Source: Candidatus Komeilibacteria bacterium (lineage in GTDB: Bacteria; Patescibacteriota; Patescibacteriia; UBA1558). From it: a stretch of DNA of 21,118 nucleotides. Below the pieces are notes generated by a model. That model saw only the letters and a program-made list of their open reading frames with translations. It was not told the origin of the DNA and did not search any database. How positions within the stretch are numbered: position 1 is the stretch's first letter; the number at the start of each line of letters is the position of its first letter. Position numbers and translations under genes: made by a program. Location: assembly GCA_024654345.1 (NCBI GenBank), contig JANLIN010000056.1, forward strand, positions 1-21,118. Reading direction: 5' to 3'. Below are positions 4,277 to 21,093 of this stretch, one piece after another.

Positions 4277-4984
4277 CTAACCGATCAGTTCTCGGGTAGT
4301 CGTGAGTCTCACGCCAGCCGTTTTGAAAAACATATTCATTTCCTCATGACCCGCCTCGTCTCCCAAATCCTGCGTGGCATCTTTTACCACAGTCACCTGA
4401 TAGCCAAGGTCTGCTAAATCCAAAGCCGTCCAACCAACACAATAGCGATATACCAGCCCACAGACAAATATTTTTTTCGGGCGCATCTGCTTAATAATAG
4501 GTAAGAGGACTAGCTCACGTCCGGCATTGTCTCTCACGGCGCTATAAGAATCACGCGTCGGCTCCAATCCTTTCCTTACTACAACGCCATCGTATTCAGC
4601 AAAGGCCTGATGTTTTCCGGCTTCTTTACCTAGGCCATGATCCGGCCATAAGGTTTGATGATGAATTCTACGTAAGTAAAGTTTGAGATCATCGACGGTA
4701 AATTTAGCCTTTGGTCCTATTTTGCTATCTTCTTTCGTCCACTGCGCCACTTCCTCGTAGGTAAGCACGTAAAAATTCGGTAAGTCGACGTATGAACTGG
4801 CAAAAGATATATGACCAACCTCATGTACATCTAGCGTGAATACTCTCTTATCCTCCGGGAAAAGCGGTAGGATTCTCTTGATAGGTGCAATCACTTTGTC
4901 GCCACCTTGTACAGCTAATCCGCCACCCGGCATGAAAGTGAGAGTAGCATCTATCACCACCAGTGCGTCCTGTCTTCCTATCAT
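4277..4984 (-). CDS. pncA: Nicotinamidase (isochorismatase family, PncA)
   Basis: 235 aa. It has ALVVIDATLTF (catalytic Asp region), a metal-binding DVHEVGH (D-x-H-x3-H) and the catalytic Cys context FVCGLVYRYCVGWT. An AAGGAG RBS lies upstream. Confidence 0.75.
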   Translation of the reverse strand: MIGRQDALVVIDATLTFMPGGGLAVQGGDKVIAPIKRILPLFPEDKRVFTLDVHEVGHISFASSYVDLPNFYVLTYEEVAQWTKEDSKIGPKAKFTVDDLKLYLRRIHHQTLWPDHGLGKEAGKHQAFAEYDGVVVRKGLEPTRDSYSAVRDNAGRELVLLPIIKQMRPKKIFVCGLVYRYCVGWTALDLADLGYQVTVVKDATQDLGDEAGHEEMNMFFKTAGVRLTTTRELIG

Positions 4985-5966: not shown

Positions 5967-6042
5967 TTTGTGACCTCCTGGCTCCGACGATAGTGTCGAA
6001 GCCGTTTTTTGTGATTGAAAAATATTTTTCCGTGCTAGTGTC

Positions 6043-7086
6043 TTATAGATTGAGATCGGGCCAATCTTCCAAAGGTTGAGTCGTCTTGACGACATGCATG
6101 CCCGCCGCCGCAAAACGACGAAACGCATCGTCGGCTTGGTCGGTGAAATCTATAATACCCGGCACGACCACGGCGGAAGTACAATCTTCCAACAAGTAAA
6201 CCTTTTTGGCCAGTTCCGGATCGTGAGCTTGTATTTCATTGAGTAAGTCATCAATCGTCCAAGCCACGCAATGACTTTTGGCTTGGCCGGCAATGATAAC
6301 AGCGTCATATTTCATCAGCTTCTCAATAAAACGAGAATTACTCTGTGCGATCGGACGTCCGGTATGATCTTCCGTTATTTCCGGCTTCAAGACAGAATAA
6401 TTTTCTGTCAGTGGATTACCGCCTTTGATTTCGAAACCGGTTTGGCTGGTGCGTGCTAAATTGTGAAAGAAAACAGCTTCTTCGATAACCGCCGTCAGAG
6501 CGTGACCAATACCACCCAGCATGGCGTGGTAGGTCCAGATCATCAACGGATATTTTCCGTCTGCCGTCAGCTTGGCCACGTAGTGGCGCGCATATTTCTG
6601 CAGAAAGCTGTAACTACCGGTAATACTGTTGGCGATGGCGGGGTTTACTTTCCATATGCCCTTCTCAACATCCGTCAGCGTAATGATGGTTTGATTCCCG
6701 ATCGGATGTTCGCCCTGATCATTGATCCAAAACACCGGATGAAAGATTTGCATGGCGGTATGAGTGTCCATTGTCGGATCTATCTCTGTAATAACGCCTA
6801 GATAGCGATAGATGAATTCCGCCAATCGGACATTATCTTCGATGGCGCCCTTGCCACTGCGCCCCCCTACAAAAAGTTCAAAATCCGGGAGGCAGAAAGT
6901 ATTCTGCGCGTCTATTACCATCAAGCAGAGACGCGTCTTATCAACGGCGGCTTTCTTGATCTTGTGTTTGTCGGCCCATTCTCTGGCATCACGCGCCCGC
7001 TGTTCGTACGGAACTCTCCAGACACTATCGGCTTTGGACGCATCAAAGTGCTGAGGAATGGGTAATTCGTGGACTGATCTTTTCAT
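6043..7086 (-). CDS. Large nicotinamidase/isochorismatase-family amidase paralog
   Basis: 347 aa. Motifs are CLMVIDAQNTFC (catalytic Asp), DTHTAMQIFH (D-x-H-x6-H metal site as in nicotinamidases) and AGQAKSHCVAWTIDDL (catalytic Cys). About 150 extra residues lie between the metal site and the Cys relative to canonical ~190-aa enzymes. An AAAGGAG RBS lies upstream. Confidence 0.7.
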   Translation of the reverse strand: MKRSVHELPIPQHFDASKADSVWRVPYEQRARDAREWADKHKIKKAAVDKTRLCLMVIDAQNTFCLPDFELFVGGRSGKGAIEDNVRLAEFIYRYLGVITEIDPTMDTHTAMQIFHPVFWINDQGEHPIGNQTIITLTDVEKGIWKVNPAIANSITGSYSFLQKYARHYVAKLTADGKYPLMIWTYHAMLGGIGHALTAVIEEAVFFHNLARTSQTGFEIKGGNPLTENYSVLKPEITEDHTGRPIAQSNSRFIEKLMKYDAVIIAGQAKSHCVAWTIDDLLNEIQAHDPELAKKVYLLEDCTSAVVVPGIIDFTDQADDAFRRFAAAGMHVVKTTQPLEDWPDLNL

Positions 7087-7137: not shown

Positions 7138-9003
7138 CTATGTTAAACGTAACAGATTTATTTCTCGACGCGATACCACGTAGAGCCCCTCTCGACCAGG
7201 ATGTAGATAAGACTGAGAGCTGACAAAGGGCTCGGTGTCAGGATACTCCTGCACGATCGCCAGGTTGTGGCCGCTTATACCAATCTTGAATATTCCTTCA
7301 TCGCTAGTCGAAAGTATTTTATCGCCGACCGGACATTTGCCGCGAATAGTACCAAGCCAACTACCATCGTCGGCTTCGGCGCTACCGATAGCGATAACGC
7401 TTCCGGCCGGCCCTATTACTTCGCACCGGTTAACGGTTTTGCCTTGAACGCGGCTACTGGTAAAAAACCAGGCGTTGTCAGCGACAAAAACAGTGGTGGC
7501 GTCGAGTAACTGACCCGTTATAGCGACCATATTTTTTACATCCTTCAATCCTTTCCGCTGATAATCAAACAAAAAGGTACGTCGGATTTCACCGGCCTGA
7601 TAAAATCCCAATCCCTGGTGTGCCCCGCTCCAAAGCAGAGTCTGATTGGATAAGGCCTGTCCCATGAATTCTTGGCCAAATTTTCCCCGGCGTAACAATT
7701 GTCCATTGTTGAGCCAAAACAGCCGGCCTGCACTGCTGTCAAACATCGGGATGTGGCGATAGTGATCCACGGCGTACTTGTTTTCTAGACGTTCCCGGTG
7801 GTATTCATGGATAACTCCGTTTAGACCCACCCAGGTAGTCTCGCCCCAGATCCGAAATCTGGCATTGGCGAAAGTTTCCGGAAAAGGTATTTTCCAACCC
7901 TCTTCTCTAACCAGTTGACCGTTTTCTCGGACCAGCCAGATTAGTCGCTCATTGTCAGTAGTAGCCTGGACAATCTGTCCTTTCGTCTGATAAAGACGAG
8001 TTGCCTTCACGGTACCGCGAATTACCGTTACCTCCCGGATAGCCGCCGGCGCCGCCGTACTACAAGTCGGACAGATGGATCGTGCGTGTTCCTGACCACA
8101 CTGCTGACAGGTAGTAAAACGGGTTAATTGCAGTAGTTTTTCCGGAAAGGGGTTTCTTTTGTCCTGGACAAATGTCTGATAAAAATAATCCAGCAAATCA
8201 TCAGAGAGAACACTGTAGTGAACCGCCGGCTTAGGATACTTTACTTCCGGATGAAAGACGGTAATCCGCTTGAGCGGACGTAGCTGATGGATTATTCGCT
8301 GTTTCTTGTCAGCCGGTCGGTAGATACCCCCATAAGGATCTACATACAGCAGACTATTCATCAGCATGACTGTAAAGGCATACCAATCCGAGGAGCTTGT
8401 AAACGGTTTGTATAGCTCGAGCGATTGGCGACGCGCGTCGGTCAGCAAAGGGTCAAGGAATTTGACAGTAAACATCCGACAAAGATAGCGTCCAAACTGA
8501 TAGCTGTCGGTATCTATCAGATAGGCTTGCTCATCTTTCACCAGAACATTCAAATCGTTAAAATCACCAACCACTACTTTCCTATCGTGCAAAGCCGAAA
8601 CAGCTTGGAGAAGCGAGCTGAATATTGTCAGTAGCGCGTTATTGTCCACTCTCCCCGGCCGGAACTTCTTGTCGCTGAAGCGCAACATTACTTCCGAGTC
8701 GGCAATGAGTGGCATACTGTAACCAACTATAAATCCCTTGCTATCTGACGCCAGTGCCACCGGTGCCACTATATTGGCCGGCAATCCAGCAGGAAAATCT
8801 GACAGTTTTGTTTGATGTTCCTCTAGCCTGTGCCGGGCCCCTTGTTGCTCCAGCGGCAGTCCGCGCAAATCGGGATGATGGGGAGACTTAAAAATTTTAA
8901 GTGCCAGTTTATCGTTTAGTCGATAAATATCGGCTTCTCCGCCCTTGCCAATGGCTTGCGCGGGAGTGATATTTATCGGATTGCCGGCTAAATAGATTTT
9001 CAT
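7138..9003 (-). CDS. Ser/Thr protein kinase-like protein with central zinc ribbon and C-terminal beta-propeller-like repeats
   Basis: 621 aa. It has a glycine-rich loop IGKGGEADIY, a Lys in ALKIFK, a catalytic loop HDRKVVVGDFNDLNVLV and LIDTDS (DFG-like). CQQCGQEHARSICPTC forms a CxxC...CxxC ribbon. Repeated W/G-rich blades follow. A GGAGG RBS lies upstream. The start overlaps the PP2C stop (ATGA). Confidence 0.7.
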   Translation of the reverse strand: MKIYLAGNPINITPAQAIGKGGEADIYRLNDKLALKIFKSPHHPDLRGLPLEQQGARHRLEEHQTKLSDFPAGLPANIVAPVALASDSKGFIVGYSMPLIADSEVMLRFSDKKFRPGRVDNNALLTIFSSLLQAVSALHDRKVVVGDFNDLNVLVKDEQAYLIDTDSYQFGRYLCRMFTVKFLDPLLTDARRQSLELYKPFTSSSDWYAFTVMLMNSLLYVDPYGGIYRPADKKQRIIHQLRPLKRITVFHPEVKYPKPAVHYSVLSDDLLDYFYQTFVQDKRNPFPEKLLQLTRFTTCQQCGQEHARSICPTCSTAAPAAIREVTVIRGTVKATRLYQTKGQIVQATTDNERLIWLVRENGQLVREEGWKIPFPETFANARFRIWGETTWVGLNGVIHEYHRERLENKYAVDHYRHIPMFDSSAGRLFWLNNGQLLRRGKFGQEFMGQALSNQTLLWSGAHQGLGFYQAGEIRRTFLFDYQRKGLKDVKNMVAITGQLLDATTVFVADNAWFFTSSRVQGKTVNRCEVIGPAGSVIAIGSAEADDGSWLGTIRGKCPVGDKILSTSDEGIFKIGISGHNLAIVQEYPDTEPFVSSQSYLHPGREGLYVVSRREINLLRLT

Positions 9004-9824
9004 GTTATTCCCCTCCTTTCCGGACCGACCTTTCGTATGACAACCAGGGTGGTGTCATCAGTTAGGTGGCCATTTTGCACTTCCATCCGGCTCTCCTGCC
9101 AGAGTGGCCGACTAACGTCGCGGTTAACCAACGTAAGCTGACGACGAACACTGTCCGGATTCTTGAAATACCGATCTTCCGTCCAGAAATTCAGCAACGG
9201 ACCGACTTCTCTGTCCTGACCGGGCACGATTTTATTGGCCGCCGCTACATAATCACCAATACCGTCAGTGGCTATCAACAGATGAGAAATGGCCGCCGTT
9301 TTTTCCTGCACCTTCATCTGCCACATAAACCGCTGATCCATGGGTTGAAATAGACCATAAGCGATGTAGGGTGGCTGATTGTCAGAAAATGGTCCGAGGG
9401 CGATATAATTGTCATTGCAGACAATTAAACCGTCACCGATTGCCGCTATGACCAGTCTATCTTCGTGGATTACCGCCGCGATAGCGGTGAATAGACCGTA
9501 GTCCTCGATGAATCTATTGGCGCCGCTAGGGTTGGGTCGTGTCAGCCAATACAACTCACGTAAAACATCCAAGCGCACGGTATCCCAGTACCGCGTGGAG
9601 CTGATATTCAGAGACAAATTTCTTTTCAGGCTGTTGGCTATCAGCTGAGCACCCAACTTGGCGCCAACTTCACTGCCGGGACTACTGCCACAACCGTCTG
9701 TCACAACGGCGATGATACTGTCATTGCCAGGCAAGATGCAGAAGGCGTCTTGATTGTTACGACCAGATTGCCGATGGTGACGTCCGATGACACTACCGCC
9801 GGCTATTTCAAACAAATCTTTCAT
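9000..9824 (-). CDS. PP2C-family Ser/Thr protein phosphatase
   Basis: 274 aa. Motifs are GRHHRQSGRNNQDAF (R-x-x-NQD), VVTDGCGSSPGSEVGAKLG (DGxGG...G) and LIATDGIGD (second metal-binding Asp). An AAGGAG RBS lies upstream. Confidence 0.75.
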   Translation of the reverse strand: MKDLFEIAGGSVIGRHHRQSGRNNQDAFCILPGNDSIIAVVTDGCGSSPGSEVGAKLGAQLIANSLKRNLSLNISSTRYWDTVRLDVLRELYWLTRPNPSGANRFIEDYGLFTAIAAVIHEDRLVIAAIGDGLIVCNDNYIALGPFSDNQPPYIAYGLFQPMDQRFMWQMKVQEKTAAISHLLIATDGIGDYVAAANKIVPGQDREVGPLLNFWTEDRYFKNPDSVRRQLTLVNRDVSRPLWQESRMEVQNGHLTDDTTLVVIRKVGPERRGIT

Positions 9825-9981: not shown

Positions 9982-10659
9982 TTACAAAATATTAACCACT
10001 GCCAGAGATCGACTGGTAAATTCAAATAATGCCGCCGGCCGATTGGCCTCACCCCTTCTCTTCTTGCCGGTGGTCTTCACCAATCCTAACGACCCGACTT
10101 TTTTGCGAAAATTTCGCTTGTCGATCTCCTGATCCAAAATTATCTCGTATACTTTCTGTAATTCCGACAAAGTAAACTGCCGGGGTAACAAACTGTAAAC
10201 TATGTTGGTATAGCCGAGCTTGGAGCGCAGTCTCTTTACACCCGTCTTTAATATTTCCGCATGATCGTAAGCCAGCGCAGGTAGCTTGGCCACCGGCCAC
10301 CAACGCACGTCCGCGTATTCGGCGGTAGTCTTTAACATCAAACTTTTATCATACGGTAATAATGCGTAGTAGGCGACGGACAATACTCGACCGTAGGGAT
10401 CTCTTTTTTCCCCGCCAAAAGCATATAGCTGTTCCAAGAAAATATCAGACACGCCGGTCTTGGCCTGAAGGTGGCGACGCGCGGCTTTCTCGACTGATTC
10501 GCTGATTTTAACCATGCCGCCCGGCAAAGCCCATTTTCCTTGATAAGGCTTCTTTTTCATCTTTATCAACAGAACGTTGAGCGCCTCGCCTCGCAGGCTG
10601 AAAATAACCACATCCGTGGCGGCGGCGACAAATTTGAATTTTTGATAAGGTTTACTCAT
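9982..10659 (-). CDS. nrtR: NrtR-family Nudix-related transcriptional regulator of NAD metabolism
   Basis: 225 aa. The N-terminal Nudix fold has GKWALPGGMVKISESVEKAARRHLQAKTG. The C-terminal winged-helix region has FTLSELQKVYEIILDQEIDKRNFRKKV, typical of NrtR. It is located inside an NAD salvage cluster. Confidence 0.65.
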   Translation of the reverse strand: MSKPYQKFKFVAAATDVVIFSLRGEALNVLLIKMKKKPYQGKWALPGGMVKISESVEKAARRHLQAKTGVSDIFLEQLYAFGGEKRDPYGRVLSVAYYALLPYDKSLMLKTTAEYADVRWWPVAKLPALAYDHAEILKTGVKRLRSKLGYTNIVYSLLPRQFTLSELQKVYEIILDQEIDKRNFRKKVGSLGLVKTTGKKRRGEANRPAALFEFTSRSLAVVNIL

Positions 10660-10769: not shown

Positions 10770-11285
10770 GTGACCATCGATAAACAGTTCGATCCATATG
10801 AGGGTTATGTTTCTTACTATTCCTATAAAAGACGTCACCTAATTAATTGCGACGGAAAATTATATTTCATTGCTCTCGGTCGCCCAAAGGTATCAAGTCA
10901 GAAAAATAAAAACGAAGTCGCTGATAAGCTTCACCACATTCTGGCTATACAAATTTCCCTCACCCCGGAGCAGTGGACAGGGAAGAATATAAGAGAAAAA
11001 TTAAGTGAAATTCGTCTCACCACAGCACAGAGCTATTTGACAAACATCAGCCAGCGACTAGAAAAGATGTTTGTGTTTGCCATGCGAGACGAAATTGACA
11101 GTTTTGAATCACTGGTCCAGCTGATGGGCGAAAGAGGGTATGTCATGCAACGCGGTGACTCAACAGACCTCTTGATTATTCTACTAAAAAATGAGGTGGC
11201 TTATGAGCTACGTACAAAGTCGGATAATTATTCTCCCGAAAAATTAAAACAACTTGCCATATCTCGGACTCTTGACGCTTTTTAA
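10770..11285 (+). CDS. Hypothetical protein (171 aa), divergent from nrtR; start uncertain (GTG)
   Basis: Long ORF ending directly at a strong rho-independent terminator. No recognisable motifs. No ATG near the 5' end, so the start codon is uncertain. Confidence 0.4.
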   Translation: MTIDKQFDPYEGYVSYYSYKRRHLINCDGKLYFIALGRPKVSSQKNKNEVADKLHHILAIQISLTPEQWTGKNIREKLSEIRLTTAQSYLTNISQRLEKMFVFAMRDEIDSFESLVQLMGERGYVMQRGDSTDLLIILLKNEVAYELRTKSDNYSPEKLKQLAISRTLDAF

Positions 11286-11416: not shown

Positions 11417-11995
11417 TTGAAAAAACTATTATTTACTCTCGCACTAGCTCTTGCTCTGGCTGTATCTGCTCCTCTTTTCGGACAGATGCAGAATACACCA
11501 GCACAGCTATTAACCTCATTTGGAGGTGAAAAATCCAATATGATTGGCAATCTGGGGCTAAGAGGATCGGTGACTATATTTGCCGTCCCAAACGACAATT
11601 TATCTCAGTATTTCGCCTACACCGGCCCCGTTTTCACCACAGAAGATGGTTGGTGGGTTTCACCACAGATCGGCTTGGTAACCAATTGGTTCGCCAAAGA
11701 CGGTTTCATCCTTGCTTTGTGGGCGGAAAAATCCATGGGTGAGTGGAAAGTTTTCACTGAGTCTGAATTGTACAAATTCGGCAACGAACACGATTTCTAT
11801 GGATATTATTACGTCGATTATGCTCCTAATGGCAGTCTCATCGGCGCACAAATTGAGTTCGTCAATTCAGACTTCGTAGTCGGTCCGCACTACGGCTTCA
11901 CCACCGGCGTCTGGACAGGCAAATTGGAACTATACTTTGGCTTCCAGCAGGAAAGTTGGAATGTCAGAGTTGTGAACTCATTTAATTTTCAATAA
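11417..11995 (+). CDS. Secreted beta-rich protein with N-terminal signal peptide (possible small outer-membrane beta-barrel/lipocalin-like protein)
   Basis: TTG start with AGGAGG RBS. MKKLLFTLALALALAVSAPLFGQ is a signal peptide. Alternating aromatic/hydrophilic strands end ...VVNSFNFQ. A terminator hairpin follows at 11998-12027. Confidence 0.65.
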   Translation: MKKLLFTLALALALAVSAPLFGQMQNTPAQLLTSFGGEKSNMIGNLGLRGSVTIFAVPNDNLSQYFAYTGPVFTTEDGWWVSPQIGLVTNWFAKDGFILALWAEKSMGEWKVFTESELYKFGNEHDFYGYYYVDYAPNGSLIGAQIEFVNSDFVVGPHYGFTTGVWTGKLELYFGFQQESWNVRVVNSFNFQ

Positions 11996-11997
11996 AT

Positions 11998-12027
11998 AAA
12001 GAGCTGTTTTTAAAAAACAGCTCTTCT
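11998..12027. terminator. Bidirectional rho-independent terminator (AAAGAGCTGTTTT/AAAACAGCTCTTT palindrome flanked by A- and T-runs)
   Basis: Perfect 13-bp inverted repeat with T-runs on both sides. It sits between the convergent genes 11417..11995 (+) and 12031..12861 (-). Confidence 0.7.
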
Positions 12028-12030
12028 TTT

Positions 12031-12861
12031 TTATTTATTATAACTTCCTCCTACGCTCATCACAGGTGAGGTATAAGAGATTTCTCCATATCTGGTGGAA
12101 AATAGTTTTTTTACTTTAAGCAAATGAAACAAATTGCCAATGACATTGCCCCGAAGCATACAACGCCGTTCACGACCTATCCCTCTTTCTTCTATCGCTA
12201 AGTCTTTAACACTTGCGTAACTGATGTGATAAAAAATTGTTTCTAAATTTACTTTTTCATTCTGTGCATCCTCTTCTGACTTACATTGAATTTCAAAAGT
12301 AAACAGTCCTTTTTTATTGGCAATCCGAGACTCAGCATTGATTGGCAATTCTTTTTTCTTAGCAAATACCGCCCCCAATCCATAGGCACCCAAAGTAAGC
12401 AAGGAGTATGGTATAAACTCCGATAGTGATGAAGCTTGATCAAATTGAGGGGAAAGAGAGATAGCTAAGACAAGAAAACTCACCAAAAGTGTGACACCAT
12501 TATTCAATTTAGTTGCCATTCTCCCAGCCGCAAACGCCAGTATCAAGTAGGGCCAATCAATTGCCACAACAAGAGGCGTCTGCGCAAATAATTGCTGATA
12601 GATCGGCGAGGATGAAACTACTAATGAATCACTCACTGCGGTTGAATCAACTGCGCTAACAGCCTCCGTCGTTCCGGCAACCAATCTTTCGCCATTTTCA
12701 TAAACATACACAATAATATCTGCCGCTACATCTAATATAATCCCCAAAAATACACTCTTTAACAAAACCCAAACGCTAACCAAGATCACTGAAAAAGAGG
12801 TATATCTTAAGCTGTAAACAGTTGCCAAACACCAGAGCCAGAAAATTTTTAGTCTATCCAT
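12031..12861 (-). CDS. Integral membrane protein (N-terminal multi-TM region plus C-terminal soluble domain), partner of the poly-zinc-ribbon protein
   Basis: 277 aa from MDRLKIF, with an AGGAGG RBS; the upstream gene's TAA lies between the RBS and ATG. I prefer this start to the track's 12975 start. Several hydrophobic helices are present. Confidence 0.6.
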   Translation of the reverse strand: MDRLKIFWLWCLATVYSLRYTSFSVILVSVWVLLKSVFLGIILDVAADIIVYVYENGERLVAGTTEAVSAVDSTAVSDSLVVSSSPIYQQLFAQTPLVVAIDWPYLILAFAAGRMATKLNNGVTLLVSFLVLAISLSPQFDQASSLSEFIPYSLLTLGAYGLGAVFAKKKELPINAESRIANKKGLFTFEIQCKSEEDAQNEKVNLETIFYHISYASVKDLAIEERGIGRERRCMLRGNVIGNLFHLLKVKKLFSTRYGEISYTSPVMSVGGSYNK

Positions 12862-12862
12862 T

Positions 12863-14200
12863 TTAATCCTCCTTATAATGTCCCACCTTACAGTGCGGGC
12901 ACAGTGTATATTCGATATCGCTCTCACACCAAGGACAGCTGTTTGTATCCTTATCAATAATAATAAGCTTGCCACAATCTTCGTTTGGACAAGGAGCTTT
13001 TAGCAACCCCGCTTCACAATGAGGACAGTCAGTCGCATCTGCCCAAATTAAACCGTCACAAACCGGACAACTTACTTCAACTAATGCTTTAGAACAAGTT
13101 GGACATTTTGTCTCATATGTCAAGTCTTCCTCCAAATAATGGTCGCTCCGCTTGCACAGATACAGATCTGCATTACATTCCGGACATTCCTTGTCACCAT
13201 CTATAATGACCGAATCACCACAAGAAGGGCATGGTGTTCTCTTCACCTCCGTGCCGCACTTGGAACATTTTTCCTCATCCTCATACATATCCTCGTCACA
13301 CTTTGGACAACTGTCTGGGTTGAGACTCTTAAGACAATTGGGACACGTTCCGCCATCTTCAGGATCTTGAGTTATATATTTTTTACATCGAGGACATACG
13401 TACAACGCAGAACCACACGCCGGACAGTCCTTATCTCCGTTAATAAATATATTACTAGTGCATTCCGGACATTTAGTTAGCTCCAGTTTTGTGTTGCAAT
13501 GACCACATTGACTCGAATCGGCATAAATACTAGTGCAGCAATTTGGACAAGAATCATATCTATATGTTCTTTGACAAGAAACGCACTCATCCAGTATATC
13601 CGGATTAACCGCGATAAATTCGTGACATCGCGGACAATTATACACGTCGCTGAGACAACTACCACACCGCATTTCGTTTATATCTTCTGGCGATAACATC
13701 TTTTCACAAGCAGGACATTCTTTTCTCCTATTCTCTGGCACAAAAACATCTCCTGGAATTACAGGTTCAGAATCATCATCGTAAACCCCATGGTTTCCTT
13801 GTAACTCATATTCATGCTCTTTCGATTCTCCGACATCTGGCGCAGCCCAAGGCATCTTCCACACTTCATCACTACCACTGACATATATCACGCTGTCAAA
13901 TCTTATATCCGGAAATTGCGTCGCCAGGCTATATAGCATCTGCTTTTTTTGATCATAGCCCCAGTGCTTTTCAAATTTGAAATCCGCACGTAGTTTTCCT
14001 AGCTGTTTCGAGAAAACAAAGAGTGACTTGTCCGGAAGCTCTATCACTACCTTAGAAACACCACCCAGAACCACTTTCTCCAAACGGCCTTCCATATCTT
14101 CCAATGGGTCTGACTGTGCCACTTCAGGCAAAGCGCCCTTAATAAAGTAACTTAGGATAGAGGTCACTAATCCAGGTATTGATGCTAGTACTTCTTTCAT
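12863..14200 (-). CDS. Poly-zinc-ribbon protein: ~140-aa Cys-free N-terminal domain followed by ~10 tandem CxxC-x(7-14)-CxxC zinc-ribbon modules
   Basis: 445 aa with repeated CPxC...CxxC units (CPACEK..CGSC, CPRC..CVSC, CPNC..CGHC, CPEC..CPAC, CPRC..CPNC, CPKC..CSKC, CPSC..CPEC, CPTC..CPVC, CPHC..CPNEDC, CPWC..CPHC). A GAGGT RBS lies upstream. A TTGACA-17-TAGATT promoter lies on the minus strand at about 14248-14276. Confidence 0.7.
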   Translation of the reverse strand: MKEVLASIPGLVTSILSYFIKGALPEVAQSDPLEDMEGRLEKVVLGGVSKVVIELPDKSLFVFSKQLGKLRADFKFEKHWGYDQKKQMLYSLATQFPDIRFDSVIYVSGSDEVWKMPWAAPDVGESKEHEYELQGNHGVYDDDSEPVIPGDVFVPENRRKECPACEKMLSPEDINEMRCGSCLSDVYNCPRCHEFIAVNPDILDECVSCQRTYRYDSCPNCCTSIYADSSQCGHCNTKLELTKCPECTSNIFINGDKDCPACGSALYVCPRCKKYITQDPEDGGTCPNCLKSLNPDSCPKCDEDMYEDEEKCSKCGTEVKRTPCPSCGDSVIIDGDKECPECNADLYLCKRSDHYLEEDLTYETKCPTCSKALVEVSCPVCDGLIWADATDCPHCEAGLLKAPCPNEDCGKLIIIDKDTNSCPWCESDIEYTLCPHCKVGHYKED

Positions 14201-14247
14201 TTTTACCTCATTTCTATATTGTTTTTAAATAGCCGTATTAATAGCCA

Positions 14248-14333
14248 AATCTATCCTAAAATTCTCCGCGTGTCAATAGAGAGTGAAAGTTATCCCCAGC
14301 AAACCATTGACAAAACTCAATTTATGTTATAGA
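14248..14333. promoter_or_regulatory. Divergent promoter region: minus-strand TTGACA-17-TAGATT (for the ZnR operon) and plus-strand TTGACA-15-TGtTATAGA extended -10 (for 14375..)
   Basis: The minus-strand -35 is the complement of 14271-14276 and the -10 the complement of 14248-14253. The plus-strand -35 is at 14307-14312, with TG at 14325-14326 and TATAGA at 14328-14333. Confidence 0.5.
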
Positions 14334-14374
14334 ATTCAGAATTGAATATTTATACATTAAAAAAGGAATAAAAA

Positions 14375-14875
14375 ATGGATTTTTCATTAGTCCCACTCTA
14401 TTTCATCCTCTTTGCAGTAATTGCTTTACCAATATTTATCCAAGTTAAAAAGCGCTTACTCATGGGTGACAGCTCGAACCATCAAAAAAAAGGTCTAGAG
14501 CACTCTGAATCCACTACTGGTGAGTCCAGAGCTCTATTACTCAATAAAAGGTTCAGCGAATTACTAAATGCGAAAGCTGACCCCATAGCAACGAAAGGCT
14601 TTAGGGATAGTACGATCAATTTGATAGATGGTAAGATTGTCAAGTGGAGTGATCTTGATTTCTCTGAGGAAATTTTAAATGACTTAGTAAGATTATCGCA
14701 AGTTCAGTGGTGCAAAGATATAATAAAAAAGATCCAATGCGATGAGGATTATTCTTCCGCTGATTACCCCAATTTCATTGAGTTAATTGATCTTCATGTT
14801 AGTAACGGAACTACCACCTGGCAAGAGCTTGGTATAAGCAAAGAGGAATTGAACCGGGTGTTGAATGAAAATTAA
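14375..14875 (+). CDS. Hypothetical protein with N-terminal transmembrane helix (166 aa)
   Basis: AAGGAA RBS; hydrophobic N-terminus LVPLYFILFAVIALPIFI. AT-rich. First gene of a two-gene unit upstream of pspA. Confidence 0.5.
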   Translation: MDFSLVPLYFILFAVIALPIFIQVKKRLLMGDSSNHQKKGLEHSESTTGESRALLLNKRFSELLNAKADPIATKGFRDSTINLIDGKIVKWSDLDFSEEILNDLVRLSQVQWCKDIIKKIQCDEDYSSADYPNFIELIDLHVSNGTTTWQELGISKEELNRVLNEN

Positions 14876-15200
14876 AGTAAATCACAATTCCGCACCGGAG
14901 AAGATCGCTGAAAAAATTCCGAGCGGAATCATGAAAATCATAGATAATGTGGGCAATACAGAAGTCACAGTTAGTGACATTCTATACGATTTAAAAGGCA
15001 CTCGCCTCAATTTTTCCTTCAAAGCTAGCTATGATGAACACTGTGTGTCAGTCAAAGGTAAGATGGATATTCTAAGAAATTGCGTTATCATGAATATAAA
15101 CTTACCAATGGTAGCACTTTTGTTCGTTAAAAGTGATGAAATCAAAAAAGTCATCACGAAAAAGCTAATTGAATTCATTCAAAACGAAGAAGCGGTTTAA
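14865..15200 (+). CDS. Hypothetical small protein (111 aa), start overlaps the previous stop
   Basis: The ATG overlaps the stop of 14375..14875, indicating translational coupling. A terminator follows. Confidence 0.45.
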   Translation: MKIKVNHNSAPEKIAEKIPSGIMKIIDNVGNTEVTVSDILYDLKGTRLNFSFKASYDEHCVSVKGKMDILRNCVIMNINLPMVALLFVKSDEIKKVITKKLIEFIQNEEAV

Positions 15201-15218
15201 AAATCGCTTCTTTTTTTC
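15189..15218 (+). terminator. Rho-independent terminator GAAGCG-loop-CGCTTC followed by TTTTTTT
   Basis: The stem overlaps the stop codon region of 14865..15200. A 7-T run follows. Confidence 0.6.
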
Positions 15219-15227
15219 AAATCCTTA

Positions 15228-15256
15228 TTGACATTAGCCTATATGTGTGCTAAGAT
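15228..15256 (+). promoter_or_regulatory. Sigma70-like promoter TTGACA-17-TAAGAT upstream of pspA
   Basis: Perfect -35 with 17-nt spacer, about 80 bp upstream of the pspA ATG. The same TTGACA-17-TAAGAT architecture occurs at 20040-20068 on the minus strand. Confidence 0.55.
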
Positions 15257-15338
15257 TGCTTATTAAATTATGATCGGACTTTAAAAAAAATAAACACCTA
15301 ATATTAGGCAAATTCATCAACAGTAACAGGAGGTTACA

Positions 15339-16166
15339 ATGGCTCTTCGAAAGAGAAGATGGTACCAAATTTTCGGCTTAATCGCGGATATGTTCAGAAA
15401 TGCAATATCTGATAATATCTCCGACGATATTAAGCTGGAATCAGATGCTCGTCAAATGATGGCCGGATTAGAACAAATGTCCAATCTGGTCTCCTACAGC
15501 ATGACCATGGCTGATAATAAATACAAGGAACTTGCACTGAAGGTGCAAAATTATCAGAGCCTTCAAGCTCAAGCTCAGAAGTTCTTAGAGCAGGGCAAAG
15601 AAGAAATGGCGCGTCGCTGCGTTGCCTTAAAACAGCAAGCGGCTACAGATATTGAAACGCTGAAAAGCGACTATGTTACTCTTCAGCAAGACGCCGAAGA
15701 CAAAGTGGCTCGTTTCAAATCGGAAAAGAGAAAAGTGGATACAAGACTTAGGGAATTACCGCGTTTGAAACAGGATGTCAAGCTGATCCAGCAGCAGAAG
15801 GAAATTGATAAAACTTTTTCCACTCTTAGCCTCGAGAGCCCGAGTTCATCTTTTGATGAGATAGCGGGCGAAATAGGCATGAAAAAGGGTCAGCTTCAAA
15901 ACAAGCGACTCTTAGAGGGGGATCCGACTGCTGCTATTGACAATGCCATAGTCAATCAATTACAGGAAGATAATATTAACCAGGAGATGGCTCGGCTACG
16001 TCAGAAAATTAATGCTCCCACTATTGAAGATGCAGAATATACGGAAGTAAATGATCCCAACCTTGGTGAAGCGTTAAATTTGCTGGAAAAGCCACGCTTT
16101 GGAAATATTCCCGATACAAATATTCGCGGCGCCAACGTCCACAATGAACAGAAAAAGGAGGAATAG
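15339..16166 (+). CDS. pspA: PspA/IM30/Vipp1-family (ESCRT-III-like) membrane-stress protein
   Basis: 275 aa coiled-coil protein. The N-terminus RRWYQIFGLIADMFRNAISDNISD parallels the PspA [23 protein letters not shown]. A central LESPSSSFDEIAGE parallels the PspA ALSGISSSSAMSAFERMEEKI. The RBS is AGGAGGT. Confidence 0.7.
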   Translation: MALRKRRWYQIFGLIADMFRNAISDNISDDIKLESDARQMMAGLEQMSNLVSYSMTMADNKYKELALKVQNYQSLQAQAQKFLEQGKEEMARRCVALKQQAATDIETLKSDYVTLQQDAEDKVARFKSEKRKVDTRLRELPRLKQDVKLIQQQKEIDKTFSTLSLESPSSSFDEIAGEIGMKKGQLQNKRLLEGDPTAAIDNAIVNQLQEDNINQEMARLRQKINAPTIEDAEYTEVNDPNLGEALNLLEKPRFGNIPDTNIRGANVHNEQKKEE

Positions 16167-16168
16167 AC

Positions 16169-16870
16169 ATGAACTGGCAGGATCTATTAGAATGGCAAAA
16201 TCTTATTTTTGCCCTTCCTTTTGTCGGAGCTTTGTTTTATTTAGTATTATTGGCTACTGGTACCTTCTCGGCCGATCATGACATAGACCATGACATAGAC
16301 CATGACATAGACCATGACATAGACCATGACATAGACCATGATCATGGCATAGAACACACTCATGATGTCAGCGGCTTTATGAAGGCTCTAACTCTACTAG
16401 GTCTCGGCAAGGTACCACTCTCGATCTTATTGACCACCTTTTTCATCACATTTGGCTTCTTTGGACTTGTAGCAAATGGAGTTCTTCAAAAAATCCTAGT
16501 CTTTCCGATAGTGTATCTGTGGGTATCACTTGCTACCACTCTATTCCTATCAATCATCTTCACTCGCTCAATAGCGATCGGGTTGGCCAAAATTCTACCG
16601 ACGACTGAAACTTATGCTTCAAAGCCGGGAGATTTGATCGGCCTAGGCGGAGAAATAATCTACACCGCCACCGAGTTCAGCGGAACATGTGATGTTTACG
16701 ATAAGTATAACACTCTGTTACGCAAGCAGTGCCGCATAAAAAAGGGAAATGAGCCCATTCCTCCAGGGAAGAAAGTAGTCCTTCTGGAATACGATGAGGC
16801 TAATGGCGAATACATTGTATCTGAAAATAACTTAATGGAATCTATCACATCACAATCACAGGAGGTATAG
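16169..16870 (+). CDS. NfeD/YqiJ/YuaF-like membrane protein (flotillin-associated) with N-terminal (DHDI)n His/Asp-rich repeat and C-terminal OB-fold-like domain
   Basis: 233 aa with AGGAGG RBS. TM helices flank a DHDIDHDIDHDIDHDIDHDIDHDHGIEHTHD tract. The C-terminal beta-rich domain follows. It sits immediately upstream of flotillin, with a 2-nt gap. Confidence 0.6.
   Translation: MNWQDLLEWQNLIFALPFVGALFYLVLLATGTFSADHDIDHDIDHDIDHDIDHDIDHDHGIEHTHDVSGFMKALTLLGLGKVPLSILLTTFFITFGFFGLVANGVLQKILVFPIVYLWVSLATTLFLSIIFTRSIAIGLAKILPTTETYASKPGDLIGLGGEIIYTATEFSGTCDVYDKYNTLLRKQCRIKKGNEPIPPGKKVVLLEYDEANGEYIVSENNLMESITSQSQEV
16274..16348 (+). repeat. In-frame 12-bp tandem repeat (CATGACATAGAC) x5 perfect plus degenerate flanking copies, encoding (HDID)n
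   Basis: Five identical contiguous 12-mers at about 16277-16336, with diverged copies on each side. Confidence 0.85.
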
Positions 16871-16872
16871 TA

Positions 16873-18735
16873 ATGGAACATCATACAAAAAAGAATTCCG
16901 GCGGTCTTATGGGGGTCGTCGCAGTACTATTCGGTCTCGCCTTCATAATCCTGCCCCTGATGTTCAGTGAGGCAGTCACAGGCACAGCGCAAGTTATTTT
17001 AACATCGTTCGGCGTTCTCCTGCTACTCACGGGCGGCATAGTGGTAACTATCACCAAGCTCTACGTCAAAACGTCGGCTAATGAGGCCTTCGTTCGAACA
17101 GGTATGGGGGGTGAAAAGACTATAATTTCCGGCGGTGCCCTTGTTCTTCCGGTCGTTCACAACATTATCTGGGTTTCGTTGGAAACAATGAAACTAGTAG
17201 TGAAAAGAACTGGTGCAACAGCTTTGATTTGCGGCGATAAATTGAGAGCTGATGTTGTCTCAGAATTCTACATAAAGATAGAAAGAGATGCTCAATCAGT
17301 GCAGTCGGCAGCTACCTCCCTTGGCGGCAGATCAGTTAACGGGGATAGCATTAAGGAGCTGGTGGAAGAAAAATTCGTCTCAGCTCTGCGTACTGTATCT
17401 TCAACAATGGAATTGATGGACTTACATCAAAACCGCGCCAAATTCGCTGGCGATGTCCAAGCAATAGTTAGTAAGGATCTCGCGCCAAACGGATTGACCT
17501 TGGAAACAGTGACAATATCTACCTTGGATCAAACACCGGTCAATTCTATGCAATCCGGCGAGAACATATTCGATGCTCAGGGAGCAAGAAAAGTTGCAGA
17601 AATCGTTGAAAGCCAACGCGTTGCTACAACTAAAATCAAAACCAAAGCTGATCAGGACGTTAAATCCGAAGAGGTTACTCGCGATAAATTCATCTTTGCC
17701 CAGGAATATGAAGCAGCTAAAGCTGAAGCTGAGCGCGATGCCTTAATAAAGAAGGTACAGGCAGAGCAAGAGCAAGAAGCTGCTACCGTTACCGCACAGC
17801 AGGAAGAGAAGACTGGAATTGCACAGGTGAAGAAAGAGGAAAACATTGCTCTAGCCGGTGTTACAAAAGAAAAGAACCTTGAAGTAGCTAACAAACAACG
17901 CGAGCAGGCTGCTGAAACCGCGGACATCGAAAAGCAGAAAGCAGTTGAATTGGCAGCGCAGGATAAAGAAATCGCTGTTGCCGGTAAAGAAAAGGAAAAA
18001 GCAGAGGCTCAAAAGTTGAAATTTGATGCTGAAGCCCTCGAAGAAGAATCAAGACAGTCGGTCAGGACAGTAACCGAAGTTGAAACTGCTGACCGTGCCA
18101 AGAAGACAGCTATCATAGCAGAGGAAGCGGAAGCCGCCAAATCCAAGGTAAAAGAAAATACAAAGGCGGATGTAGACGCATATACAGTAACAAAAAAAGC
18201 CTCTGCCGATATGGAAGCGGCCGAAAACAAGGCGCAGGCTATTAGAACTCAGGCACAGGCTGATAGAGACGCCAAAGTTGCCGAAGCTGAAGGTAAAAAA
18301 GCTCTGGAAATGATTCCGGTTGAAGTTGAAGGCGCCCGCGTAGAAGTTCGTCAAAAGGACGTCGAAGTAACAGGCACTGAACTGAAATACAAGGCTGAGC
18401 ACCAGGAAATTTCCAAGGAATTGGAAATAGCGTTAGCCAATATTGCGAAGGATAAAGAAATAGGAGTTGCCAAAGCTCAGGCTCTGGGTCAGGCACTTAG
18501 CTCAGCTAACATGCAAATCTGGGGAGATAGCAATATGATGAGCACTATTACCAAATTGTTTACAAATGGTCAGGCAGGAGCCGCCGCTGTTAACGGTTTT
18601 ATGAGCCAACTTGACGAAGAAGGTGAAAATGTCCTCGTGATATTAAAGACCTTAGTTGAAAAGTTTGGCCATAAACTTGGCGACAAAGCCAAAGCCAAAA
18701 TAACTGACGTTATCAGTGAAACAGTAAAAAAGTAA
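16873..18735 (+). CDS. Flotillin-like SPFH/band-7 protein with N-terminal membrane anchor and long E/A/K-rich coiled coil
   Basis: 620 aa with AGGAGG RBS. N-terminal TM helices are followed by an SPFH-like region (VRTGMGGEKTIISGGALVLPVVHN...). A flotillin-type EA-repeat coiled coil spans about 300 aa. A C-terminal globular tail follows. Confidence 0.75.
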   Translation: MEHHTKKNSGGLMGVVAVLFGLAFIILPLMFSEAVTGTAQVILTSFGVLLLLTGGIVVTITKLYVKTSANEAFVRTGMGGEKTIISGGALVLPVVHNIIWVSLETMKLVVKRTGATALICGDKLRADVVSEFYIKIERDAQSVQSAATSLGGRSVNGDSIKELVEEKFVSALRTVSSTMELMDLHQNRAKFAGDVQAIVSKDLAPNGLTLETVTISTLDQTPVNSMQSGENIFDAQGARKVAEIVESQRVATTKIKTKADQDVKSEEVTRDKFIFAQEYEAAKAEAERDALIKKVQAEQEQEAATVTAQQEEKTGIAQVKKEENIALAGVTKEKNLEVANKQREQAAETADIEKQKAVELAAQDKEIAVAGKEKEKAEAQKLKFDAEALEEESRQSVRTVTEVETADRAKKTAIIAEEAEAAKSKVKENTKADVDAYTVTKKASADMEAAENKAQAIRTQAQADRDAKVAEAEGKKALEMIPVEVEGARVEVRQKDVEVTGTELKYKAEHQEISKELEIALANIAKDKEIGVAKAQALGQALSSANMQIWGDSNMMSTITKLFTNGQAGAAAVNGFMSQLDEEGENVLVILKTLVEKFGHKLGDKAKAKITDVISETVKK

Positions 18736-18757
18736 TACTAAAAAAATAAGTATTAAC

Positions 18758-18790
18758 AACCGGATGATCTATATCATCCGGTTTTTTTAT
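18758..18790. terminator. Bidirectional rho-independent terminator (AACCGGATGAT-CTAT-ATCATCCGGTT with flanking A-run and T-run)
   Basis: Perfect 11-bp stem between convergent flotillin (+) and the small membrane protein gene (-). Confidence 0.75.
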
Positions 18791-18793
18791 ACC

Positions 18794-19114
18794 CTACAAC
18801 GCCCAAAACAGGACAACCACCAACCCCGCCGCTAACATCAGCACGAAGATATAGCCGAGGGTATAGCCGATAATTTTCAACCCCTCGCTGATATGACCTT
18901 TGAACATAATATAGGCCGGATAACCGAAGACTGTCAGAGCCATCAAGCCGGCGGAAAAGACGAATAGCAGGAGAAACAAGGCCCCGCCGGTCCAGCCGAT
19001 ATTACCCACTTGTTCCAGGGAATTCATCAGCCACGCCACCAGCAAACAGTAAATAATGACACCCAAAGCCTGCAAAAGGGCAATATTGGCCGGTTTAAAA
19101 TATTCTTGGCGCAT
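18794..19114 (-). CDS. Small integral membrane protein (106 aa, about 3 TM helices)
   Basis: Highly hydrophobic sequence. No clear SD. It ends at the bidirectional terminator. Confidence 0.45.
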   Translation of the reverse strand: MRQEYFKPANIALLQALGVIIYCLLVAWLMNSLEQVGNIGWTGGALFLLLFVFSAGLMALTVFGYPAYIMFKGHISEGLKIIGYTLGYIFVLMLAAGLVVVLFWAL

Positions 19115-19170
19115 ACAATTAATAGTTGAATGATTATACGTACATTATATAACCGAACGTTGTTTGCGCC

Positions 19171-19200
19171 AATAAAAAACCAGCCTCTTATGAAGGCTGG
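19171..19200 (-). terminator. Rho-independent terminator for the histidine phosphatase gene (CCAGCCT-loop-AGGCTGG then TTTTTTATT on minus strand)
   Basis: 7-bp GC-rich stem directly after the stop at 19207, followed by a T-run. Confidence 0.65.
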
Positions 19201-19206
19201 GATATT

Positions 19207-20001
19207 TTAGCTGAATTTTTCTTTGAGTATCCGAAGCTCATGTTCCGTCTCAAGAGCATAGGTTCGTTCTGTTTTCCAGAGAACATAAGGAGGCTGAACC
19301 AATTCAATCCTGAACTTACCCCGACTCCAACCCCACAGTCTCTCTGGTGGACGGTAGTGAAGGATCGCGCAATTTACCAGATCCTGCTTTTTCCCGATGA
19401 CGAATAATTGTTCAGGGTCATGATGTTCCAATAGCTGACGTATCGCCAACATGACTGCGCTGTGGCAAAATACCGCCACCTTCTTGCCGGCCCAGTCGCG
19501 ACGAATGGTGTCCAAAAGACTGTGTAGCCGTAAGAAAAGATGAATATAATTCTCACCGCCCGGCGCTTTGGCGCTGAAGTACTTCCCATCACGTCTGTAC
19601 CGGCCGATATGATCGGGGTAATACTGTTCCAGGTATTCCGTCCCCATCATGTGTCCAACGCCGAAATCTTTTTCGTTCAACCTCGGATCTTGCCTCACCG
19701 TGAACAGCGGGAAAACCAACTCTGCTGTTTCGATAGCTCGTCTCATCTGAGAGGCGTACACAATGTCGGGTCTGAAATTAAGCCTGCCTCCGGTCTGACT
19801 GGATTGATCTCTCCCCATCGGACTCAGGGGCACCAAATGATTGGAGATATCAAAACCTAGGGCTTCCAATGGACTCTTTGCCAAACCTTCATCAACCCTT
19901 TCATAGCCAACCTGATGAAATCCATGCCCGTGACGAATAAATAGCATTTCCGGCCACGGTCCACGCAGCCATTCAAAAATATAGTTACCTAACCATCTCA
20001 T
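19207..20001 (-). CDS. Histidine phosphatase superfamily protein (phosphoglycerate-mutase-like)
   Basis: 264 aa with the RHG motif LFIRHGHG near the N-terminus and a second His context VFCHSAVM. The RBS is AGGAG. Confidence 0.65.
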   Translation of the reverse strand: MRWLGNYIFEWLRGPWPEMLFIRHGHGFHQVGYERVDEGLAKSPLEALGFDISNHLVPLSPMGRDQSSQTGGRLNFRPDIVYASQMRRAIETAELVFPLFTVRQDPRLNEKDFGVGHMMGTEYLEQYYPDHIGRYRRDGKYFSAKAPGGENYIHLFLRLHSLLDTIRRDWAGKKVAVFCHSAVMLAIRQLLEHHDPEQLFVIGKKQDLVNCAILHYRPPERLWGWSRGKFRIELVQPPYVLWKTERTYALETEHELRILKEKFS

Positions 20002-20036
20002 GGTCTACTCCTTTTTTTATTAAATAACGAATTTAA

Positions 20037-20068
20037 GTCATCTTACTCAAGATGACCGACCGTGTCAA
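20037..20068 (-). promoter_or_regulatory. Promoter TTGACA-17-TAAGAT (minus strand) with a 20-bp palindrome GTCATCTTactcAAGATGAC overlapping the -10; putative operator
   Basis: The -35 is the complement of 20063-20068 and the -10 the complement of 20040-20045. The perfect 8-bp-arm palindrome is at 20037-20056. A TGTCAagcTGACA palindrome and TGACATA direct repeats lie just upstream (20062-20090). Confidence 0.5.
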
Positions 20069-20094
20069 GCTGACATAGTTGACATATATTTTTT

Positions 20095-20235
20095 GAGTTC
20101 GACAATACAGTCCCTATAGTCGGTCCACACTATGAGTTCACCACTGGAATCCGGACAGGTAAACTGGTATTATACTTTGGCTTCGAACAGGAAAGATGGA
20201 ATATCAGAATTATAAATTCGTTCAGTTTTCAATAA
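20095..20235 (+). pseudogene. 3'-terminal gene fragment (about 47 in-frame codons plus stop) paralogous to the end of the secreted-protein gene 11417..11995
   Basis: About 80% nucleotide identity to 11855-11995. The frame is conserved and translates EFDNTVPIVGPHYEFTTGIRTGKLVLYFGFEQERWNIRIINSFSFQ* versus EFVNSDFVVGPHYGFTTGVWTGKLELYFGFQQESWNVRVVNSFNFQ* in the intact gene. An in-frame TGA lies just upstream, and there is no start or signal peptide. Confidence 0.7.
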
Positions 20236-20240
20236 TAAAT

Positions 20241-20268
20241 AAAGAGCCGTTATTTAAAACAGCTCTTC
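20241..20268. terminator. Diverged copy of the 11998-12027 terminator palindrome (AAAGAGCCGTTATTTAAAACAGCTCTT)
   Basis: Hairpin with one mismatch, homologous in position and sequence to the terminator after the intact gene. Confidence 0.55.
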
Positions 20269-20301
20269 TATATTAATTCTGCCATAACTATGCCTATGAT
20301 A

Positions 20302-21093
20302 TTACCAATAGGGCTTAAAGTCATGATTGCCCAGTAAAGAACAGTGTCTGGCTAAATAGTCAGACGAACTAACTAGCTGATAGCGCTTTTTAAATTCATA
20401 TTTATCTATCGTCGGTATTTGGTCCAAAACTACTTGAAAATCATCAAAATCCCACGACGACTTTTTATTTAAAATAACCCGCGCTACCAGTAACAACTCT
20501 TCATTTGGCTCAAAGTTATTCCACAATTCTTTAGGAATAAACCTTTTAAAGTGATAATTACCCATAGTAGGATAAAGCTTTATCATCACTCTCTTACTAC
20601 GGCAGAGCTTAATCTTGCTATCAAAACAAGAGATATCGGGCAGACTCACCTTCAGCCGACACTTTAAATACTCGGCCGTATGAGCACAATAATTTTTTAT
20701 TTCTTCTTCCACCACATTGTGATCCCGCTCCGTTTTACTTAAAGTGCTGAACATTTTGGATAAATACGGTAAAGGATGATGAACAACCGTTGTCCTGGCT
20801 TTATTGATATCAAGACGATGGAGCTCAGAGAACACTCCCGACCCTAGACCGAACTCATGAATCATACCGGGAATTACCGCCAGGGGCGTTAAGTCTAACT
20901 TTTCGAACCTTTCAATAATTTCCGCTCGACCCTTTTTATATCGAGTCTTGCTGTTAACTACCATGCTGTTATACCGCTTTAAATCATCCAGCGGAATTCC
21001 CTGTTTCAAAGAAACAGGGATTTCTCTCAAAACAGAGTCAAAATAATTCTTGATGAAGCGATCCACCTCTAAAATCCATTTCTCCTTTTTCAT
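20302..21093 (-). CDS. Hypothetical protein (263 aa), AT-rich; weak polymerase-beta-like nucleotidyltransferase hint (GLGSG-x9-DIN), not asserted
   Basis: Long ORF with GAAGGA RBS. Lower GC than the NAD cluster. No confident motif recognised. Confidence 0.4.
   Translation of the reverse strand: MKKEKWILEVDRFIKNYFDSVLREIPVSLKQGIPLDDLKRYNSMVVNSKTRYKKGRAEIIERFEKLDLTPLAVIPGMIHEFGLGSGVFSELHRLDINKARTTVVHHPLPYLSKMFSTLSKTERDHNVVEEEIKNYCAHTAEYLKCRLKVSLPDISCFDSKIKLCRSKRVMIKLYPTMGNYHFKRFIPKELWNNFEPNEELLLVARVILNKKSSWDFDDFQVVLDQIPTIDKYEFKKRYQLVSSSDYLARHCSLLGNHDFKPYW

Follow-up and report, generated by a model that had tools for sequence, protein, structure and literature searches.

Why should the final quarter of a gene stand a second time on the same contig, 8.2 kb downstream of the intact gene? 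This question is raised by contig JANLIN010000056.1 of Candidatus Komeilibacteria bacterium (GTDB lineage Bacteria; Patescibacteriota; Patescibacteriia; UBA1558; NCBI GenBank assembly GCA_024654345.1), in which a gene for a 192-aa protein, predicted to be a small porin-like beta-barrel, is followed at that distance by a diverged copy of its 3' end and terminator. The window analysed here is the entire contig record of 21,118 bp, and the view ends there. An earlier note on this DNA, made from the sequence without database searches, had preferred to read the repeat as the footprint of a mobile module integrated into the 3' end of the gene. We find that the second copy (copy B), a remnant of the 3' end of the barrel gene, is non-functional and in decay, and that the bracketed genes are not demonstrable as a mobile element. 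The fuller reading, in which the barrel gene once had a second coding version, copy B is what is left of that version in decay, and no mobile element is demonstrable, has slightly better than even odds (probability roughly 0.55).

The repeat and its decayed copy

The repeat has sharp limits and stops short of most of the gene. By blastn, 11853–12033 (copy A) aligns with 20093–20275 (copy B) over 187 nt at 78.6% identity (E = 1.6e-41), and a gapless core of 143 nt (11853–11995 against 20093–20235, 79% identity) confirms the recurrence of gene end and terminator that the earlier note had described. Both the left edge (11853/20093) and the right edge (~12033/20275) are sharp, and wider alignment past them gave no further similarity; the breakpoint on the left of copy B, at 20092/20093, is likewise sharp. 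The reading frame of copy B is open through 47 codons and ends at a homologous stop shared with copy A. In-frame stops lie just upstream, the frame contains no ATG, GTG or TTG, and no listed open reading frame (ORF) covers it. Copy B is therefore untranslatable, because it has upstream in-frame stops and no start codon. A six-frame scan of the window with a hidden Markov model (HMM) of the barrel family matched, besides the intact gene, only copy B at profile positions 151–197, and it gave no second trace of the 5' three quarters of the barrel gene. The earlier observation of a preserved frame without a 5' part thus holds.

The differences between the copies are strongly one-sided. Copies A and B differ at 16 of 47 residues, and wherever they differ at a site with a clear family consensus, copy A keeps the consensus and copy B departs from it. 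Position 149 is V in copy A, as in 29 of 42 family members, and D in copy B, as in none of the 42; the same contrast is seen at positions 153 (F, 11/42, against P, 1/42), 160 (G, 35/42, against E, 2/42) and 166 (W, 20/42, against R, 0/42). A family HMM made without the window protein scores the tail of copy A at 45.9 bits and that of copy B at 22.9 bits. At the nucleotide level, 16 sites have G/C in copy A and A/T in copy B, compared to 7 sites with the reverse, and the GC content is 0.39 in copy B and 0.45 in copy A. Drift towards A/T is the direction expected of unconstrained bacterial DNA. Together with the one-sided departure from the consensus, it suggests that copy B has been non-coding for a long time.

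The hairpin behind copy B appears, from its folding on the two strands, to have been taken over, or kept, as a terminator for the convergent 263-aa gene, and not in the relic's own orientation. Hairpin A has folding energies of −14.3 kcal/mol on the plus strand and −15.9 kcal/mol on the minus strand. Hairpin B folds at −14.8 kcal/mol with a U-rich tail on the minus strand, compared to −8.8 kcal/mol with a degraded T-tract on the plus strand. The survival of hairpin B is best explained by its present use in ending the 263-aa gene. The HMM scores, the AT drift and this one-strand hairpin together bear out what was common to both readings offered in the earlier note, insertion or a decayed paralog, namely that copy B is a relic of a gene's 3' end.

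Copy B may also retain signs of a coding past. It keeps E147, G156, P157, H158 and R184, five residues that are invariant or nearly so in the family. Several residues shared by the two copies are rare elsewhere in the family: four of them (F148, Y159, K169 and L172) are present in 1 of 42 relatives each, and W181 is present in 2 of 41. The terminal Q of both copies is seen in no relative with a residue at that place. Because they share these family-rare residues, copies A and B are closer to one another than to any relative, and neither was brought in from a distant member of the family. Nei-Gojobori comparison of the 47 codons gave 13 synonymous (Sd) and 18 non-synonymous (Nd) differences, with dS of 0.68, dN of 0.18 and dN/dS of 0.27. 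When substitutions were placed wholly at random, the observed BLOSUM score was reached in 0.3% of trials. A fairer null starts from identical copies, allows copy A to change synonymously only and lets copy B drift freely, and it was simulated with 26 random substitutions in copy B. Under this null, the frame stayed open and all five invariant residues survived with P = 0.033, the BLOSUM score reached or exceeded the observed one with P = 0.034, and the joint P was 0.005. This is mild evidence, not decisive with 47 codons, that part of the divergence may have arisen while copy B belonged to a coding gene.

The genes between the copies and in the flanks

The core of the bracketed DNA appears, from its gene content, to be an ordinary chromosomal envelope-stress operon of PspA-like, YqiJ, flotillin and zinc-ribbon genes, accompanied by unrelated neighbours (Table 1). 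The best non-self relatives of the flotillin are 49–51% identical, and the closest of them, at 49%, lies in another Komeilibacteria metagenome-assembled genome (MAG; locus L001). There the order is collinear: a 107-aa gene, then the PspA-like, YqiJ, flotillin and zinc-ribbon genes and a homolog of the gene at 12031. The neighbours of the module in L001 differ from those in the window, and neither a barrel-family gene nor a repeat is present. Co-directional, adjacent PspA-like, YqiJ and flotillin genes are found in the window, in L001 and in a Logan contig (L007), and a YqiJ/flotillin pair occurs in a Thermomicrobiales contig (L006). Because it recurs in these other settings, the module core is a widespread chromosomal operon that has been rearranged between lineages.

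Table 1. Features of the window around the two repeat copies, with GC content at third codon positions (GC3) for individual genes.
Feature	Position	Strand	GC3	Remarks
171-aa gene	10770–11285		0.41	
Intact barrel gene, 192 aa	11417–11995	+	0.47	Signal peptide and predicted 12-stranded KdgM/NanC-like beta-barrel; unnamed family
Repeat copy A	11853–11995	+		Final 47 codons and stop of the intact 192-aa gene
Terminator A	11998–12027	both		Bidirectional hairpin serving the 192-aa gene and the convergent gene at 12031–12861; scored on both strands
Membrane protein gene, 276 aa	12031–12861	−		Partner of the zinc-ribbon protein; 26% identical to L001 6920–7654, which adjoins the zinc-ribbon gene there
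Zinc-ribbon gene, 445 aa	12863–14200	−		Multiple double zinc ribbons; Pfam DZR 5e-20; L001 homolog directly after the flotillin gene
Small gene, 166 aa	14375–14875	+		Upstream of the PspA-like gene
Small gene, 111 aa	14865–15200	+		Directly upstream of the PspA-like gene
PspA/Vipp1-like gene	15339–16166	+		Coiled-coil protein, weak match; Pfam PspA_IM30 21.8 bits (cutoff 33.9); homologs in L001 and L007
YqiJ-like gene	16169–16870	+		Membrane protein; Pfam YqiJ_N 1.5e-11
SPFH/flotillin (YqiK-like) gene, 620 aa	16873–18735	+		Pfam Band_7 6e-15; followed by a terminator at 18758–18783
Membrane protein gene, 106 aa	18794–19114	−	0.65	Outside the conserved module
Histidine phosphatase gene, 264 aa	19207–20001	−	0.52	Pfam His_Phos_1 3.9e-22; outside the conserved module
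Promoter-like site of the phosphatase gene	20040–20068	−		TTGACA, 17-nt spacer, TAAGAT; consensus match only
Repeat copy B	20093–20238	+		Untranslatable relic of the final 47 codons and stop
Terminator B	20241–20268	−		Hairpin in the orientation that terminates the 263-aa gene; scored on the minus strand only
263-aa gene	20302–21093	−	0.43	Convergent with the relic; contig ends 25 nt beyond

Comparable associations of PspA have been described: its partners are band-7/flotillin and membrane proteins of the YqiJ/YuaF type in some operons (PMC11237479), and zinc-ribbon membrane proteins in the B. subtilis pspA-ydjGHI operon (PMC8581546). The bracketed core has the same partners (YqiJ_N, a long SPFH/flotillin and a zinc-ribbon protein), with YqiJ_N and Band_7 matches above their Pfam thresholds, but differs in its PspA-like protein, whose Pfam match stays below the threshold, and in gene order, as the zinc-ribbon and partner genes are placed divergently in the window and collinearly in L001. 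A profile of three PspA-like homologs found Vipp1/PspA chains as its best matches among solved structures, with weak scores (E = 0.011–0.17). The listed ORF of the zinc-ribbon partner runs to 12975 and overlaps the zinc-ribbon gene by 113 nt; translation most probably begins at the ATG at 12861, which follows an AAGGAGG ribosome-binding site and gives 276 aa. The L001 homolog aligns with this ORF from residue 38 on. Within the YqiJ-like gene, a 12-nt tandem repeat in five copies (16274–16353) encodes a His/Asp-rich (DHDI)n stretch after the first membrane segment, which could be a metal-binding or length-variable loop.

The functional coherence that had been ascribed to the bracketed DNA applies to part of it. 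The PspA-like, YqiJ, flotillin and zinc-ribbon genes and the zinc-ribbon partner form a conserved set, and the two small genes, the 106-aa gene and the phosphatase gene fall outside it. Neither the 166-aa nor the 111-aa protein has a match in Pfam or PHROGs or a homolog in L001 or L007. For the 106-aa gene and the phosphatase gene, L007 has no counterpart, and L001 offers only a weak match of the window phosphatase (22% identity, E = 4e-7) to a domain inside a tRNA-synthetase gene. That L001 gene (10778–13978) encodes a 1066-aa class-I aminoacyl-tRNA synthetase with the His_Phos_1 match lying between its tRNA-synt_1 matches, and judging from a Val_tRNA-synt_C match it is probably of the valyl type. 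A CesT/Tir-like chaperone partner of PspA has been described (PMC11237479), and both the 111-aa gene of the window and the 107-aa gene of L001 sit at the corresponding position beside the PspA-like gene; no sequence similarity was detected between the two proteins.

Signs of mobility were sought in gene content and composition. Pfam revealed no recombinase for any bracketed gene, nor did PHROGs for those without a clear Pfam family, in agreement with the absence of an integrase reported earlier. No tRNA or transfer-messenger RNA genes were found, no Rfam family matched, and there are no terminal inverted repeats at the repeat boundaries. GC3 is 0.37–0.44 from the zinc-ribbon gene through the flotillin gene and 0.43–0.60 in the ten left-flank genes (left 10 kb), so the bracketed DNA is indeed AT-richer in places (12.0–18.7 kb), but low GC3 also extends over both flanking genes and 18.8–20.0 kb is GC-richer. 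The zone of low GC3 comprises 10.8–18.7 kb and 20.3–21.1 kb; because it takes in both flanking genes and leaves out the GC3-rich 18.8–20.0 kb, the compositional breaks do not lie at the repeats. The k-mer comparison proposed in the earlier note gives no support for a foreign origin either, as the tetranucleotide distance between bracket and flanks (21.8) falls within the range of arbitrary 8-kb segments (15.5–23.8).

Two further groups of genes were seen on the left of the window. An NAD salvage cluster occupies 1177–4984 and 9982–10659, with a NUDIX protein, a nicotinate phosphoribosyltransferase, an isochorismatase-type (nicotinamidase-like) protein and an NrtR-type NUDIX/winged-helix regulator. 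At 7138–9824, there is translational coupling between a PP2C phosphatase and a 621-aa protein whose protein-kinase match is weak and falls short of the Pfam cutoff; the adjoining ORFs at 5178–7086 have no family match. On the right, the 263-aa gene has no match in Pfam or PHROGs.

How the relic may have arisen

We can only infer the history of the relic, and three origins fit the layout: insertion of a segment, truncation of a paralog and duplication of the fragment alone. In the reading that we prefer, the barrel gene would once have existed in two versions, either paralogs in the same lineage or alleles from different genomes, and much of the A/B divergence most likely accrued while both were coding. 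An old rearrangement at 20092/20093 would then have parted the 3' end of copy B from any 5' part and set the phosphatase promoter beside the relic; left without its 5' part, copy B would then have drifted, and it now gives rise to no protein. The promoter-like site of the phosphatase gene lies just left of this breakpoint. Beside that site, and abutting the breakpoint on its left, is a short direct repeat at 20063–20090 (TGACATAG then TGACATAT), which may be an operator.

A truncated paralog would accord with the partial selection signal and with the gene context at copy B. Barrel-family genes typically stand alone and convergent with their downstream neighbour, and this is so at both A and B. 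Copy B resembles truncated paralog pseudogenes in its sharp 5' breakpoint, missing start, asymmetric consensus loss and AT drift, but differs from them in that the frame and the invariant residues have survived better than would be predicted from random decay, and in that no intact paralog is found in the contig, the databases or six other family loci. These loci, labelled Patescibacteria (L002, L010, L014), Patescibacteria-like in small-gene content (L003/L004 and L005) or labelled Gammaproteobacteria (L013), have one copy of the barrel gene each, with neither a fragment nor a flotillin operon in the sequence examined per locus. Because all six are single-copy, the family appears to be without tandem paralogs or recurrent 3'-end duplication; two full-length tandem paralogs in relatives, which the earlier note had named as a sign of simple duplication and decay, are thus not the arrangement seen. 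In the Logan contig L005 (5812–6539) the family gene matches the profile in two frames (positions 1–173, then 159–197), an indication of a frameshift or an error of sequencing close to the 3' end of the gene. Of eight matches to a degenerate DNA pattern (EQVN-x4-[FY]GPH), three are true family loci. Closer relatives were absent from the sources searched: the 192-aa gene has none in the protein database or metagenome contigs, and neither the 263-aa gene nor the peptide patterns common to copies A and B have relatives in genome or metagenome contigs.

Several observations weigh against a once-coding second version. No intact paralog was found in any database searched or in the six other family loci. 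The contig is the whole record, and genes beyond it are out of view. The selection signal comes from 47 codons and is borderline, and the AT drift and asymmetric loss of consensus also fit a copy B that was non-coding for most or all of its history.

An insertion with a replacement 3' end would account for the layout in a single event, although we consider it unlikely. An 8.2-kb segment (11853–20092) would have entered the 3' end of the gene carrying its own last 47 codons and terminator, either as a circular intermediate through a recombinase that acted in trans or has since been lost, or by a homologous single crossover. Copy A would then have come in with the segment, copy B would be the native end that it displaced, and the one event would yield a complete gene, the insert and a 3' fragment with a sharp boundary. 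Decay of the displaced copy with conservation of the attached one is what such an event predicts, the mild sign of divergence under selection before copy B died is in keeping with it, and GC3 at 12.0–18.7 kb is below that of the left 10 kb. There is also a precedent in e14 of E. coli K-12, in which the icd 3' end is followed by the inserted DNA and then by a C-terminal fragment, icdC, as a direct repeat with conservative changes; e14 is a recognisable prophage that is excised by site-specific recombination under SOS induction (PMC13626634). The window has the same layout, an intact gene and a homologous C-terminal pseudogene fragment at the far end. It differs from icd/icdC in that it has no recombinase or phage gene, its copies have diverged much further (79% nucleotide identity), and the bracket contains housekeeping-type envelope-stress genes.

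Every hallmark of an element except the repeats is missing from the window: there is no recombinase, no tRNA gene and no terminal inverted repeat, the low-GC3 zone ignores the repeat boundaries, and the tetranucleotide distance is unremarkable. The preferred reading of the earlier note, integration of a mobile module at the 3' end of the gene, therefore finds no positive support in recombinase genes, tRNA genes, inverted repeats or a matching compositional break. Nor does it find support in the only related MAG recovered, in which the core is a chromosomal operon located elsewhere without such repeats or a nearby family gene. Within the bracket, unrelated genes accompany the conserved operon, the six other family loci lack a 3'-end duplication, and 79% identity is too low for a present-day homologous crossover. 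The more specific proposal, that the 3' end of the barrel gene is the attachment site of an integrase-less 8.2-kb island, which was mobilised in trans or by homologous capture, brought the envelope-stress operon and restored its target with its own diverged 3' end, is doubtful.

Duplication of the fragment alone, followed by neutral decay, is quite improbable. Copy B would have been non-coding from the start, arising from a tandem duplication from 11853 that was later trimmed, or from a repair-type insertion that duplicated ~180 bp of target, and all differences would be synonymous changes in copy A plus random drift in copy B. The counts that we estimate for this model (~11 synonymous and 20 non-synonymous differences) are near those observed, every informative derived state lies in copy B, differences from G/C to A/T prevail (16 against 7), and no intact paralog was found anywhere searched. 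However, the simulated null described above corresponds to this history, and the open frame with its five invariant residues and the BLOSUM score were seldom reproduced by it, least of all jointly; at least two events with convenient end points would also be needed.

Other explanations can be set aside briefly: a larger duplication that took in the convergent downstream genes, because the proteins of 12031–12975 and 20302–21093 are unrelated, with no similarity detected between them, and DNA similarity stops just past the terminator; an assembly artefact, by the reasoning that an assembler would not collapse or mis-join copies that are 79% identical; a small ORF, as copy B has no in-frame start codon; and a known RNA, as copy B has no Rfam match.

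The barrel family and the meaning of the relic

The intact gene belongs to a small, unnamed family. Its 192-aa product is identical to protein NUV82_01700, and a word-index homolog search with it returned only itself, while exhaustive searching with HMMER yielded 111 cluster representatives at E ≤ 1e-3, ~190–200 aa long and 26–40% identical. The family alignment shows a signal peptide, four invariant residues (Y68, G70, G143 and G156) and seven nearly invariant ones (P58, P83, G86, E147, P157, H158 and R184), and the C-terminal residue is Phe in 36 of 42 relatives. The 192-aa protein has no Pfam match at E ≤ 0.01, no PHROGs match and no membership of the KdgM family in Pfam. AlphaFold2 run on the family alignment gave a predicted local distance difference test (pLDDT) score of 95.3 and 11–12 antiparallel strands, and the gene is therefore predicted to code for a small porin-like barrel. 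With its signal peptide, 12 antiparallel strands, closed barrel and C-terminal aromatic residue, the predicted structure has the features of the KdgM/NanC type of 12-stranded outer-membrane porins, from which the protein differs in sequence, with only 9–12% identity. Copy B corresponds to roughly the last three and a half strands of this predicted barrel. The family is found mainly in contigs labelled Patescibacteria. Patescibacteria are generally considered to have no outer membrane, and a literature search for porin-like barrels in this group found nothing relevant.

As a genomic scar the repeat is of an ordinary kind, though the organism is unusual; it is a single decaying fragment without demonstrable function. 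If the insertion were true, it would mean the horizontal delivery of an envelope-stress operon into a reduced genome of the candidate phyla radiation (CPR) via a protein-coding attachment site, which would be a modest addition to what is known of CPR genome plasticity. The value of the relic lies mainly in annotation, as it marks a rearrangement breakpoint and accounts for the terminator of the 263-aa gene. The barrel family itself, unnamed, predicted to be porin-like and present in Patescibacteria, merits more attention than the repeat.

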